DNA from: Tissierellia bacterium
Lineage (GTDB): Bacteria > Bacillota > Clostridia > Tissierellales > Dethiosulfatibacteraceae
Assembly: GCA_007116605.1 (NCBI GenBank)
Contig: SKID01000296.1
Location: forward strand, 1 to 24,798
Length of the DNA: 24,798 nt
Reading direction: 5' to 3'
Below are positions 1 through 5,710 of this stretch, piece by piece. The notes under the pieces were generated by a model. That model ran no database searches. It was not told the DNA's origin and was given only the letters and a program-made list of their open reading frames with translations. Positions within the stretch are counted from its first letter, which is position 1, and each line of letters opens with the position of its first letter. Made by a program: the position numbers and the translations under genes.

Positions 1-1112
1 ACATTGACTGCCTTGATTTTATTTATTTTACCTTCCTGACCTAAAAATGATTTTGTTGCTACTTTCTACATATTTTCGCATCCCTCTTCATGAGCTGAAG
101 TCTGTTTGTATAATTTTTTGAAAGTAGGCTAGGGCATACTTTCATCTCTTTCTTTGGAAGGCTTTGGTAAAATCTCAAACTGGTAAACTTTTTTTGCTCC
201 CTGCCTGTTAGCTGTTCCAACACAGTCAGAGCCGGTATCTCCACCTCCAATCACTAAAACTGTTTGATCTTTGGCACTAATTTCAGATGCAATCATAGTG
301 CCCTCTAAGCTTTTTGTTTGTTGTCCTAAATAATCTACTGCATAATAAATTCCCTTTAATTCTCTTCCAGGAATTTTTAAATCCCTTGGCACCCAAGTGC
401 CACAACTTAATACTACTGCATCGTATTTTTTTTTGATCTCTTCTAGTTCCATTTCTTTTCCGACCCATTTATTAGTGACAAATACAATTCCTGCCATTTT
501 TAGCATGTCAATACGTCGATCGATAATTTTTTTGTCTAGTTTATAATTAGGTATACCGTAGCGCATGAGACCACCTAATTTTTTTTCTCTTTCAAAAACT
601 GTCACTCTATGACCTAATGCATTTAAATCATCTGCTAAGGTCAAGCCGGCAGGACCACTACCAACCACAGCTATCTTTTTTTCAGTTCTAACTTTTGGTA
701 TTCTTGGTTGAACCCATCCTTCAGAAAATGCACGTTCTACAATAGATTGCTCAATTTCTCTTACTGAAACAGCCTCTCTATTTATTCCTAAAACACAAGC
801 AGCTTCACATAGTGCTGGGCAAACTCTCCCAGTGAATTCAGGAAAATTAGCGGTCAAGGCGAGTTTTTCATAGGCTCCTTTCCAGTCACCCATATAAAGT
901 AAGTCATTCCATTCAGGGATTAAATTACCTAAGGGACAACCCCAGTTGCAAAAAGAAGTGCCACAGTCCATACATCTATTTGCCTGAGCCATCATTTCGC
1001 CCTCAGCTAAAGGCAGATAAATTTCATTAAAATCCTTAATTCTATCTTCAATCGGTCTTTTAGAATAATTTTTACGTTCAATTTTTATAAATCCTGTCAT
1101 TTTATCTGTCAT
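1..1112 (-). CDS. gltD: Glutamate synthase small (beta) subunit; runs off the left edge; interrupted by two in-frame TAG codons (129-131, 66-68), so intact versus pseudogene is unresolved
   Basis: N-terminal Fe-S motif RCMDCGTSFCNWGCP, FPEFTGRVCPALCE, FAD motif VVGSGPAG and NAD(P) motif VIGGGDTGSDC. The same frame continues past the ORF-track stop as ...RDESMP*PTFKKLYKQTSAHEEGCENM*KVATKSFLGQEGKINKIKAVN, which is still GltD-like. SD AGGAGGTG precedes ATG 1112. Confidence 0.93.
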
Positions 1113-1123
1113 CTTCTCACCTC

Positions 1124-4100
1124 CTACGATATTTTTATCTGATCTCCACCTTCAATGATTTCTTTGTACCTTTCTGGAATGACTCTTACAAAATATTGCT
1201 GATACATTTTCCAGTTGTTCAATATTTCTTTGCCGACCATACTATCTGTATACGCCACATGATTTTCTATCATCAATCTCACTTTTTTCATGTTTTCTTT
1301 TGTAGGTTTTTCAATTAAAACCATCTCTTGATTGGCTTTTTTATTGATTTGTTTTTCTATATCAAGAATAATTGCTATCCCACCACTCATTCCTGCAGCA
1401 AAATTTCGGCCTACTTCTCCTAAAATTACCACAAATCCGTCCGTCATATACTCGCATCCATGGTTTCCAACCCCTTCAACAACTGCTTCAGCTCCACTGT
1501 TTCTTACAGCAAACCGTTCACCCACAATACCATTTATATAGACTTGTCCACTGGTTGCACCATATAATAATGTATTGCCTGCAATCATGCTTTTCCCGTA
1601 TTCAGCTTCCTTTGGTTTTCTTACAATAATTTTACCTCCAGAAAGTCCCTTGCCTACATAATCGTTTGCGTCTCCTTCCAATGTTAAAGTAAGACCTTTG
1701 ATGCCAAATGCACCAAAACTCTGACCCGCTGAACCATAAAACTCAAAAGATAAGGTATCATCTTCTAAGGTTTCATGTGGATATGTCTTAGCGATTTGAC
1801 CACTCAACATAGTTCCTACAGCTCTGTGTACATTTTTGATTTCATAAGCACCAGAAACTTTTCGTTTATCCTTAAAAAAGCTTTGACTCTGCATCATTAG
1901 TTTTTGATCCATACTGCCATCTAAACCATGGTCTTGTGTCTGAGAACAATAAGGGGTAATTCTTTTGGGCATATCTGGCCTATACAAAATACTCGATAAA
2001 TCAAGATGTTTTGCTTTCCAATGTTGAATGTCTTGTCTTACTGTTAGTTTATCCACTCTACCTACCATTTCATTAATCGTTCTAAAACCTAACATTGCCA
2101 TATATTCTCTAACTTCTTTTGCAATATAACGCATAAAATTCATGACATATTCAGGCTTTCCACAAAAATTCTTTCTCAACTCATCACTTTGTGTTGCAAC
2201 GCCCATTTCACAATTATTATTTTGGCAATGCCTTAACATCACACAGCCTAAAGTAACTAGTAATGTGGTAGCAAAGCCAAATTCCTCTGCACCCAGTAGA
2301 CAGGCCATGACTACATCTCGACCCGTCTTAAGTTGTCCATCTGTTTGTAAGCGGACCCGGCTTCTTAAATTGTTGAGGAGCAATACTTGATGAGTCTCTG
2401 ACAATCCAATCTCCCAAGGAATACCTGCATGCATGATTGAAGATAATGGCGATGCCCCTGTACCTCCATCATGGCCACTAATAATAATTAAATCTGCATG
2501 TGCTTTTGTCACGCCTGCCGCTACTGTTCCAACACCATTTTCAGCTACTAACTTAACACTAATTCTTGCACTTGGGTTTGCATTTTTTAAATCAAAGATC
2601 AGTTGGGCTAAATCCTCTATCGAATAGATATCATGATGGGGTGGCGGTGAAATTAAGTCAATTCCAGGTACAGAATGTCTAATCATACCAATATATTCAT
2701 TAACCTTCTTTCCTGGTAGATGTCCTCCCTCTCCCGGTTTAGCCCCTTGTGCAACTTTTATTTGAAGTTCGTCTGCTGATGCTAAAAATTGTATCGTCAC
2801 ACCAAATCTAGCTGAGGCAACTTGTTTGATGCGGCTATTTTTATTATCCACATCATTAATCGTCTTTAGTCTCGCTGTATCTTCTCCACCTTCGCCAGAA
2901 TTACTTCGTGCTCCTAACCGATTCATAGCTATTGCAATTGTTTCATGAGCTTCTTTGCTTATCGACCCAATGGACATTGCTCCAGAGCAAAATCGTTTAA
3001 TAATTTCTGATTCCGGCTCTACTTCTTCAAGGGGAATGGATTGACTCTCTTTAAAGGTTAATAAACTTCTAATAGTCCCTAAGTTATCACTTTGCTCATC
3101 CACTCTTTTTGTGTATTCTTTAAACTTGTCATAACGACCCATTCTAACAGACTGCTGTAATCTGTAAATGGTATCTGGGTTAAAGGTATGAAACTCACCA
3201 TTTTTCCGCCACTTATAGAGTCCACCTACCTCTAGAGATTGGCGAGATTCTCTAATTCGATCAAATGCTACTTGATGTCTTACAAGGACTTCTTGGGCTA
3301 TTTCATCTATTCCGATGCCACCTAATCGAGTAGGTGTTCCTCCGAAATAGCGATTAACTGTTTCTTCATTAATACCTATCACTTCGAAAATTTGTGCTCC
3401 ATGGTAACTTTGTACTGTACATATGCCCATTTTTGATAGTATTTTAGCTAACCCTTTAGAACATGCTTTTAGGTAGGCTTTCTCACCTTCTTTTTCAGAA
3501 CATTGAATTTGTCCTGTTTTTTCCATCATTCTTATACTATGAATCGCTAAATACGGATTAATGGCACTGGCTCCATAAGCTGTTAATAGTGCAAAATGTG
3601 TTGTTTCTCTAGCATCTCCTGCTTCTACTAAAATAGACACTTTAGACCGCTGTTTTTTTCGAATTAAATAATGATGCACCGCAGATACAGCTAGCAGCGA
3701 AGGAATGGCCGCTTCATAACTATCTACTTTCACATCGGAAAGCACTAATATATTATAGCCTTCTTTCACTCTTTGCAAAGCACGCTCACAAATGAGTTCT
3801 AAGGCTTGTTTAAATCCTTCAACACCACTGTCTGCTTTAAAGGTAATGGGAATCACCGTAGACATTAAATCTTCTGTCATCAATCTTTTAATTTGATTCA
3901 TTTGCTCATTACTTATGATGGGAGTATCAATTCTTAAATATTTGTGATCTAAATGTTTCATGTTTAAAATATTTTCTTGGGTTCCTAAAAAATTCATCAA
4001 AGACATTACAATCCCTTCTCGTATGGGGTCTATTGGAGGATTGGTCACTTGAGCAAACAATTGTCTAAAGTAATTAAATAATAGTTGGGGTTTATTTGAT

Positions 4101-5635
4101 AATACCGCTAAAGGCGTATCATTACCCATGGATCCAATAGGCTCACTGCCATTTTCCGCCATAGGCTTTAAAATTAATCTTAAATCTTCCATGGTATAGC
4201 CAAATGCCTTTTGTTTATCAACCAGTTGATCCATTGATAAATTGACTTCTCCTGTGGGCAAATGAGGCAAAGATTCAAATTTTACACGACTATTCCTCAC
4301 AATATCGATATAGTCCATTTTATTAGAAACTCTAGACTTTATTTCCTCATCAAAAAATATTTGCTTTCTTTGTGTATCAACTAAGAGCATTTCTCCCGGT
4401 GCTAAGCGTCCCTTTTTAATGATATGTTGAGGCTTCATCTTAAGAACACCAAATTCAGAGGCCATAATCAGTGTATGATTGTCTGTAATAATGTATTTAG
4501 CAGGTCTTAATCCATTTCTATCTAATGTTCCACCTATTTGAACACCATCACAAAAAAACATTGCTGCTGGACCATCCCATGGTTCAATCATAGCTGCATG
4601 ATATTCATAAAAGGCCCGCTTTTCCTCAGGCATATTCATATCATTTTCCCATGCTTCTGGAATTAACATCATCAATGTATGTGCATTCGTACGACCATTT
4701 TGCTTGATAAACTCAAAAGCATTATCCACTGATGCAGAATCACTTTTTCCTGGTTGAATAATCGGATATAAATCATTGATTTTATCTTTGAAAACTCCTG
4801 ACTCTAAAACACCTTCTCTTGTTTCCATCCAATTTCGATTTCCTTTAATCGTATTGATTTCACCATTATGGGCTAAATAACGAAAAGGCTGAGCTAAGTC
4901 CCATGTAGGAAATGTATTGGTGCTAAATCTTTGATGCACTAATGCCATGGCACTTTTAAAGTGAATATCTGACAAATCCGGGAAGTAATATTCTATTTGA
5001 TCTGCTAACAGCAGCCCTTTGTACACAATTGTTTTGCATGATAAAGAGCAAATATAGAAGTATTCTCTATTTCTTTTCACCAATCGATTCACTTCCGACT
5101 CTACTCTTTTCCGTATCAAATAAAGGTTTCTTTCAAATGTTTCCTCATTGTGATCTTGGTCCGTCGACATCGCTATAAAAACTTGCCGGATGACCGGCTC
5201 AGATCCTTTAGCCGTTTCGCCTAAAGTCTTATTATCTGTTGGAACAAATCTCCATCCTAAAGTCTTATATCCTGAGTCTCTTACAACTCTCTCTACAATC
5301 CCTTCACATTGTAGTCTCAATGCTGTTTCTTTAGGTAAAAAAATCATTCCTATACCATATTGCCCTTGATCAGGCAAATCAATCCCATCATTAGCTGAAT
5401 AAATTCTAAAAAACTCATCTGGAATCTGAGTCATAATTCCTGCACCATCACCCGTCTTTGGATCTGAACCTACTGCTCCTCGATGCTCCATATTTTTTAA
5501 AATCTCTAATCCGTGTTTAACGATTCGATGACTGATTTCTCCTTTAACATTAACTATAAATCCAACACCACATGCATCTTTTTCGTTTTCAGGATGATAT
5601 AAACCTTGTTTTTTTGGCAATCCATATAAGTCCAT
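1124..5635 (-). CDS. gltB: Glutamate synthase large (alpha) subunit, ~1503 aa
   Basis: Propeptide plus catalytic Cys in ENEKDACGVGF, HQRFSTNTFP, EPWDGPA, QIKVAQGAKPGEGG, 3Fe-4S Cys triad GCVMLRHCQNNNC and the C-terminal GXGXG beta-helix. Start moved from 5692 to ATG 5635, which follows SD GGGAGG. Ends in TAG. Confidence 0.97.
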   Translation of the reverse strand: MDLYGLPKKQGLYHPENEKDACGVGFIVNVKGEISHRIVKHGLEILKNMEHRGAVGSDPKTGDGAGIMTQIPDEFFRIYSANDGIDLPDQGQYGIGMIFLPKETALRLQCEGIVERVVRDSGYKTLGWRFVPTDNKTLGETAKGSEPVIRQVFIAMSTDQDHNEETFERNLYLIRKRVESEVNRLVKRNREYFYICSLSCKTIVYKGLLLADQIEYYFPDLSDIHFKSAMALVHQRFSTNTFPTWDLAQPFRYLAHNGEINTIKGNRNWMETREGVLESGVFKDKINDLYPIIQPGKSDSASVDNAFEFIKQNGRTNAHTLMMLIPEAWENDMNMPEEKRAFYEYHAAMIEPWDGPAAMFFCDGVQIGGTLDRNGLRPAKYIITDNHTLIMASEFGVLKMKPQHIIKKGRLAPGEMLLVDTQRKQIFFDEEIKSRVSNKMDYIDIVRNSRVKFESLPHLPTGEVNLSMDQLVDKQKAFGYTMEDLRLILKPMAENGSEPIGSMGNDTPLAVLSNKPQLLFNYFRQLFAQVTNPPIDPIREGIVMSLMNFLGTQENILNMKHLDHKYLRIDTPIISNEQMNQIKRLMTEDLMSTVIPITFKADSGVEGFKQALELICERALQRVKEGYNILVLSDVKVDSYEAAIPSLLAVSAVHHYLIRKKQRSKVSILVEAGDARETTHFALLTAYGASAINPYLAIHSIRMMEKTGQIQCSEKEGEKAYLKACSKGLAKILSKMGICTVQSYHGAQIFEVIGINEETVNRYFGGTPTRLGGIGIDEIAQEVLVRHQVAFDRIRESRQSLEVGGLYKWRKNGEFHTFNPDTIYRLQQSVRMGRYDKFKEYTKRVDEQSDNLGTIRSLLTFKESQSIPLEEVEPESEIIKRFCSGAMSIGSISKEAHETIAIAMNRLGARSNSGEGGEDTARLKTINDVDNKNSRIKQVASARFGVTIQFLASADELQIKVAQGAKPGEGGHLPGKKVNEYIGMIRHSVPGIDLISPPPHHDIYSIEDLAQLIFDLKNANPSARISVKLVAENGVGTVAAGVTKAHADLIIISGHDGGTGASPLSSIMHAGIPWEIGLSETHQVLLLNNLRSRVRLQTDGQLKTGRDVVMACLLGAEEFGFATTLLVTLGCVMLRHCQNNNCEMGVATQSDELRKNFCGKPEYVMNFMRYIAKEVREYMAMLGFRTINEMVGRVDKLTVRQDIQHWKAKHLDLSSILYRPDMPKRITPYCSQTQDHGLDGSMDQKLMMQSQSFFKDKRKVSGAYEIKNVHRAVGTMLSGQIAKTYPHETLEDDTLSFEFYGSAGQSFGAFGIKGLTLTLEGDANDYVGKGLSGGKIIVRKPKEAEYGKSMIAGNTLLYGATSGQVYINGIVGERFAVRNSGAEAVVEGVGNHGCEYMTDGFVVILGEVGRNFAAGMSGGIAIILDIEKQINKKANQEMVLIEKPTKENMKKVRLMIENHVAYTDSMVGKEILNNWKMYQQYFVRVIPERYKEIIEGGDQIKIS

Positions 5636-5710
5636 AAGCGCCTCCCAATATTGCTTCATAAATGAATACATTTGTATTTCATATAAAAACATTTATTTCT
5701 ATTTTTTAAC

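Follow-up and report, generated by a model that had tools for sequence, protein, structure and literature searches.

Two in-frame TAG codons in gltD of a pyrrolysine-decoding soda-lake bacterium are probably contig-end errors

Two in-frame TAG codons interrupt the gltD gene of a soda-lake bacterium at positions where its homologues invariably carry tryptophan, and in our judgement both are likely to be errors within the final ∼131 bases of a metagenomic contig with low coverage. In the organism, gltD probably has TGG at each of these sites and specifies an ordinary GltD whose translation is coupled to that of gltB.

The gltD locus and its two TAG codons

The window (the whole stretch of DNA that was analysed, 24,798 bp) is one entire contig, C17, of a soda-lake MAG that consists of 378 contigs (1.88 Mb, 35.8% GC, 71% completeness). 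The gene for the glutamate synthase small subunit, gltD, lies at its edge (1-1112, minus strand), with codons 1-370 of ∼475 present before the contig end truncates it. A profile search matched the gene to TIGR01317 (GOGAT_sm_gam) at 491.5 bits, with a cut-off of 447.7, over profile positions 1-377 of 485, and its Pfam architecture is Fer4_20 followed by Pyr_redox_2. The gene for the large subunit, gltB (1124-5692, minus strand), is co-oriented with gltD, lies 11 nt upstream, and is intact, encoding 1522 aa (NF008730, 1760.8 bits versus a cut-off of 1047). It ends in TAG, and this terminator is overlapped by the gltD Shine-Dalgarno sequence AGGAGG (1120-1125), 7 nt before the gltD ATG. The nearest named GltD relatives in a protein search were those of 'Clostridiales bacterium 38_11' and Dethiosulfatibacter sp., and identity to a same-genus GltD was 72%. 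Within the sequences accessible to the searches, nothing closer than 72% identity was returned by an exact look-up of GltB, by two exact-word scans of metagenome contigs, or by protein searches that used either the full GltD or just its final 110 aa. When public runs were searched, the locus sequence was found in soda-lake and alkaline-sediment data sets.

Minus-strand translation of window 1-1112 gives a frame that is homologous to GltD as far as the contig edge, and is open except for two TAG codons in the assembly, where GltD should have an uninterrupted frame. The first TAG (129-131, minus strand; CTA within CTAGG on the plus strand) is codon 328 and occupies the invariant tryptophan of MPWP. 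The second (66-68, minus strand) is codon 349, occupies the invariant tryptophan of an E-W motif, and is outside every independent contig. Both lie within 131 nt of the contig end. A first-pass annotation, made from the sequence, had reported TAGs at codons 328 and 349, and we find its coordinates and the surrounding peptide to be correct. Its proposal that each TAG sits on a conserved tryptophan is borne out by alignment, in which both columns are W in 117/117 full-length homologues and TGG in 8/8 orthologues from the same genus or family (68-73% amino acid identity). None of these orthologues contains an internal stop, and the TAGs are not common to the GltD genes of close relatives. The upstream context was likewise described accurately as undamaged, with all six upstream tryptophans of gltD encoded by TGG, gltB intact, and the Shine-Dalgarno sequence in place.

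A third deviation lies between the two TAGs, at codon 332 (117-119, minus strand), which is AAA (Lys) in a column that is Pro in 98% of the 117 homologues, and which is probably a miscalled CCA. Conserved columns were defined as those at least 95% identical among the 117 GltD homologues. By this measure, one of 87 conserved columns deviates in codons 1-310, versus three of 13 in codons 311-370 (hypergeometric p = 0.0065, with the TAGs themselves making up two of the three deviations). Codon 283 (264-266, minus strand), in the AK-G-K segment before the second GGGDTG, is Gln where all 117 homologues have Lys, and this substitution is real, because the DNA contig and the RNA contig described below both match the window there. 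The GltD call in the protein collection stops at the first TAG and is 327 aa long, and what is probably an artefact has thus already yielded a truncated GltD database entry.

Independent sequence and other contig ends

Only one DNA run was found to hold the locus, a soda-lake run from sample S1 (X1) containing 86% of the words of window 1-1500. Its contig over the locus, at a depth of 5.4, covers only 181-1500, and the terminal stretch (1-180) has no independent DNA support; none of 13 31-mers sampled from bases 1-180 was found in any indexed DNA run. Logan assemblies drop k-mers seen only once per run (PMC12424806), so that, should X1 be the source run, the terminal 180 bases of the MAG contig would depend on k-mers that occurred a single time or had been pruned. 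The sole difference between the X1 contig and the window over 1320 nt is at base 828 (T in X1, C in the window), and this is either a polymorphic site or a sign that the MAG was not assembled from X1 alone. X1 is only a candidate source run of the MAG. A contig from another run (X3), labelled a 'wastewater metagenome' and dated 2021, is 100% identical to window 1220-1500, within gltB, an unexpected match for an organism of soda lakes.

From the same study came a metatranscriptome of sediment S2 (X2), which provided a 254-nt contig with a k-mer depth of 10.6 that covers 78-331 and differs from the window only at bases 118 (T>G), 119 (T>G) and 130 (T>C). Read on the coding strand, bases 118-119 change AAA (Lys332) to CCA, the Pro codon expected from 98% of homologues, and base 130 changes TAG328 to TGG, the Trp found in 100% of homologues. 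Bases 131-331 of this contig, together with a second X2 contig (933-1254), are identical to the window. All three differences fall within 13 nt, none is synonymous, and the window has the deviant state each time. Nonsynonymous differences clustered in this way mark local sequence error or very local damage rather than strain divergence. A-to-I RNA editing, with TAG in DNA and UGG in RNA, was ruled out, since that RNA contig has an AA>CC difference as well. The second TAG (66-68) is outside this coverage, as the X2 contig ends at base 78 and the X1 contig at base 181.

The remainder of gltD was located on the end of another contig, C293, which carries the last 42 codons and the stop with the frame intact, and ∼57 codons are unassembled between C17 and C293. 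With gltD broken across two contigs that leave part of it unassembled, coverage must have failed inside the gene. A similar situation was met on C349 (L019:2557-2568, plus strand), where an aldehyde:ferredoxin oxidoreductase gene contains a TAG 45 nt from the contig 3' end. In this column, four relatives from the same genus encode Leu (as TTG or CTA), and two codons past the TAG, C349 has TTT (Phe) versus a Cys that is conserved in the same four relatives; the AFOR_C domain match spans both anomalies. A second contig-end error is probable here, and since the TAG replaces Leu rather than Trp, it speaks against TAG being read as Trp, and for error-prone contig ends in this assembly.

Contig ends were also compared across the assembly, using frames that were open across the adjoining 150 codons. 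At least one stop was present in the terminal 66 codons at 35.8% of real contig ends versus 25.9% of internal pseudo-ends, an excess that is real but non-specific, because contigs also tend to break between genes. One or two terminal stops were found at 33 contig ends, 11 of the unclear cases among them were run against Pfam, and only C17 and C349 had a stop inside clear homology. The genes at the ends of C92, C255, C47 and C202 end or start naturally, and these contigs were rejected as damaged ends. On C286 (L039:1-150), a gene for a BCS1-like AAA ATPase loses its AAA-domain similarity just past Walker A, ∼30 codons before the end, and then meets a TGA; no other frame carries the AAA domain onward, and this is possibly a chimeric or erroneous contig end. 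The three in-frame stops met at contig ends are all TAG, with no TGA or TAA, in a genome with machinery for pyrrolysine (Pyl), which weighs against error as their cause.

The first-pass annotation had remarked that two stops on Trp codons are odd for random decay. For unbiased changes this stands: the last 61 codons of gltD offer 41 single-base routes to a stop, and if hits were unbiased, a pair of them would strike exactly these Trp codons with p ∼0.005. It does not stand if changes are biased toward C>T, which produces the pattern automatically. Only four of the routes involve G>A on the coding strand, equivalent to C>T on the plus strand, and every one of these falls in the two Trp codons. 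The gltD stops are both plus-strand C>T changes, the first of them lying in CCAGG>CTAGG, and since a C>T-biased process on this strand can make stops only at TGG, it would place both TAGs on Trp without any recoding. For the two Trp codons alone, the chance of obtaining TAG at both is ∼1 in 4. Candidates for the process are deamination of template cytosines, a Dcm-type hotspot at the first site, or a biased miscall. Deamination, which had been suggested in the first-pass annotation, fits both stops and the sequence context of the first, yet the C>T pattern cannot separate mutation in vivo from damage in the library. The verified discrepancies at 118 and 119 are G>T on the plus strand, the change that typically results from oxidised guanine or from cross-talk between the G and T signals. 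Genome-wide damage in the style of ancient DNA was rejected, as neither C depletion nor T excess was seen with distance from all contig ends. When gltD was compared with relatives, G>A was the commonest substitution along the whole gene (18/53), without enrichment at the end, and at 72% identity these relatives are too distant for the substitution spectrum to help.

Genetic code and pyrrolysine machinery

Among 1373 ORFs of at least 150 codons, TAG ends 304 (22%), TAA 781, and TGA 288, and the prfA gene for RF1 is intact (547 bits, above cut-off, in an open frame). The 17 other genes in the window comprise 7293 codons, 52 of them TGG, with no in-frame stop, and three of these genes end in TAG. 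Elsewhere in the genome, the in-frame TAGs that were found are at Pyl sites (mttB and mtbB) or at the Leu position on C349. No tRNA with a CUA anticodon was present among the 9 tRNAs recovered, a set that is far from complete. The genetic code is not altered in this genome, and the amber readthrough put forward in the first-pass annotation is not supported as programmed recoding, given the frequent TAG terminators, the intact RF1, the 52 TGG codons, and the TGG codons of PylS-carrying relatives. Same-frame ORF pairs split by a single TGA were also seen, and 19 of 25 lack a Shine-Dalgarno sequence and start after the TGA (on C93, C132, C304, C178, C210, C319 and others). Some of these pairs may be selenoprotein genes, e.g., for glycine reductase or formate dehydrogenase, and others are probably antisense shadow frames.

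This organism does decode pyrrolysine. Screening for ORF pairs in the same frame separated by one stop revealed mttB (TIGR02369, 643 bits) and mtbB (TIGR02368, 480 bits), each with one in-frame TAG, on the minus strand of contig C59. Here they are part of a cluster (L020:1-5916, minus strand) in the order MtaA/CmuA-like methyltransferase, MtbC-type corrinoid protein, mttB, mtbB and pylSc, and the mtbB TAG marks the start of a PYLIS_2 element, which scores 44.5 bits with a gathering score of 36. The pylSc gene, also on the minus strand, scores 275.8 bits with a cut-off of 178, and pylS runs into the contig end. A partial pylB and pylC (387.5 bits) are found on contig C90 (L021:3580-5231), with an NhaC antiporter gene after pylC, where pylD would be expected. 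Neither pylD nor pylT was found in the 71%-complete assembly, with its 9 assembled tRNAs. In the case of pylT, ARAGORN on C59 and C90 and blastn with the tRNA-Pyl of relatives found none, and relaxed ARAGORN settings gave only noise. Downstream of the mtbB stop, C59 also carries a CTCTAAA motif, which sits just upstream of an apparent terminator hairpin and was rejected as a tRNA.

PylS is present in 3/5 same-genus and 2/3 sister-genus genomes, and tRNA-Pyl is located ∼0.8 kb downstream of pylS in two sister-genus genomes. The PylS-carrying relatives G002, G004, G006 and G009 have TGG at both gltD sites. A PYLIS-like element was searched for in window 1-1300, and no match was obtained at E≤1 in a scan that does detect PYLIS_2 at the mtbB TAG, although such a structure after the TAG is not an absolute requirement for a Pyl gene. 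The first-pass annotation had held that a private pseudogene would be indicated if relatives have TGG, no other in-frame TAG occurs genome-wide, and the genome has no Pyl or suppressor machinery. The relatives do have TGG, but the machinery (pylS, pylB and pylC) is present, along with the TAG-containing mttB and mtbB. The presence of a pyl cluster with TAG-containing mttB and mtbB in a soda-lake lineage related to Dethiosulfatibacter extends the set of bacteria known to use Pyl, and implies that methylamines are used in soda-lake sediments.

Explanations for the gltD stops and comparison with known systems

Contig-end error had been one of four options listed without preference in the first-pass annotation, and it is the one we favour, because X2 reads TGG at the first TAG and Pro at codon 332, because the words sampled from bases 1-180 are absent from the indexed DNA runs and gltD is split across contigs, and because the end of C349 shows the same kind of damage. 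In such a scenario, coverage at ∼5x depth would have given out within gltD, the assembler would have lengthened the contig from one or very few reads, and miscalled or damaged read bases (C>T and G>T on the plus strand) would have entered the consensus uncorrected. We infer that the deviant bases stem from reads rather than from cells, and that the second TAG shares the origin of the first. Beyond the all-TAG stops at contig ends and the candidate status of X1 as source run, two considerations weigh on the other side. X2 and X1 derive from different samples (S2 and S1), so the RNA contig could be the intact allele of a polymorphic population, and strain variation can itself break contigs, which counts against an artefact. 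They belong to the idea, also raised in the first-pass annotation and kept here as a minority alternative, that the TAGs and Pro332Lys are real private mutations in the strain dominating the DNA sample, where gltD would be a very recent pseudogene, or a deleterious allele beside the intact one in the RNA sample. We think this unlikely, even though the assembler did produce the TAG sequence, C>T at CCAGG suits a Dcm-type deamination hotspot, polymorphism could account for both the contig break and the differing RNA contig, and deviation at 3/13 conserved columns in the last 60 codons is what starting decay would be expected to give. Against it are the three damaging changes packed into 13 nt, while neither the adjoining 200 nt nor another 322 nt shows a synonymous difference, and the fact that X1, the sole DNA run with the locus, has no contig over this stretch. 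Damage is moreover missing from codons 1-310, from gltB, from the Shine-Dalgarno sequence and from the 3' end on C293, and a second contig end, in an unrelated gene (C349), is damaged in a similar way.

The presence of pyrrolysine machinery raises the possibility of real TAGs that the cell's own pyrrolysyl-tRNA reads through, producing full-length GltD with Pyl at two Trp positions; GltD would then perhaps be completed only when Pyl-tRNA is expressed, on methylamines. PylSc, PylC, a partial PylB, TAG-containing mttB and mtbB, and PYLIS_2 at the mtbB TAG all point this way, as does the fact that both gltD stops are TAG and not TGA. We nevertheless regard read-through as very improbable, given W in 117/117 homologues, TGG in relatives that carry PylS, and TGG at the first site in the RNA contig from the same study. 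There is also no PYLIS-like element in window 1-1300, the 71%-complete assembly yielded neither pylD nor pylT, and TAG is a common stop in the genome. Pyl is known almost exclusively from the active sites of methylamine methyltransferases, and is not known to stand in for Trp. A genome-wide reassignment of TAG to Trp, or suppression by a tRNA-Trp with a CUA anticodon, would explain why both TAGs are exactly on Trp codons, and the recovery of only 9 tRNAs leaves room for a suppressor. Its probability is close to negligible, since TAG ends 304/1373 long ORFs, about as many as TGA, with RF1 intact; since the 17 neighbouring genes have 52 TGG codons, three TAG terminators and no in-frame TAG; and since the remaining in-frame TAGs are at Pyl sites or a Leu, with no CUA-anticodon tRNA among the 9 recovered.

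The likely origin of the gltD stops in a contig end has a practical consequence. In-frame stops at conserved residues less than ∼150 nt from the end of a MAG contig should be checked against reads before recoding is called, and this holds even in a genome that decodes TAG as pyrrolysine. If the TAGs were true, they would offer a rare view of how amber mutations in a housekeeping gene are dealt with by a bacterium that decodes Pyl. If Pyl read-through were true, an expanded code would be sheltering nonsense mutations, or making them conditional, in a core gene outside the methylamine methyltransferases.

Compared with known systems, the gltD anomalies resemble low-coverage errors at contig ends (tips) in MAGs, in that they lie in the last 131 nt, at a depth of ∼5 and next to an unassembled gap, are contradicted by independent, near-identical sequence, and have a counterpart in comparable damage at a second end. 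They differ in that both stops are C>T on one strand, which is more like template damage or deamination than random miscalling, and the error here is deduced. With the Pyl genes (mttB, mtbB and mtmB) of Firmicutes such as Desulfitobacterium and Acetohalobium, gltD shares an in-frame TAG in a genome that has pylS, pylB and pylC, but its TAGs are found in no orthologue, are on invariant Trp positions without a PYLIS-like element, and one is absent from sequence of the same study. A code in which TAG specifies Trp is known from the plastids of Balanophoraceae (NCBI table 32). The position of the TAGs at Trp is alike, although here TAG is a frequent stop, RF1 is present, and the other Trp codons examined are all TGG. 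With respect to TIGR01317 and the gltBD operon, the gene is a GltD that scores above the cut-off though truncated, and lies directly downstream of an intact gltB. It departs from the family by the two stops and the Pro>Lys change in the assembly, and by the last ∼105 codons, which are missing from C17.
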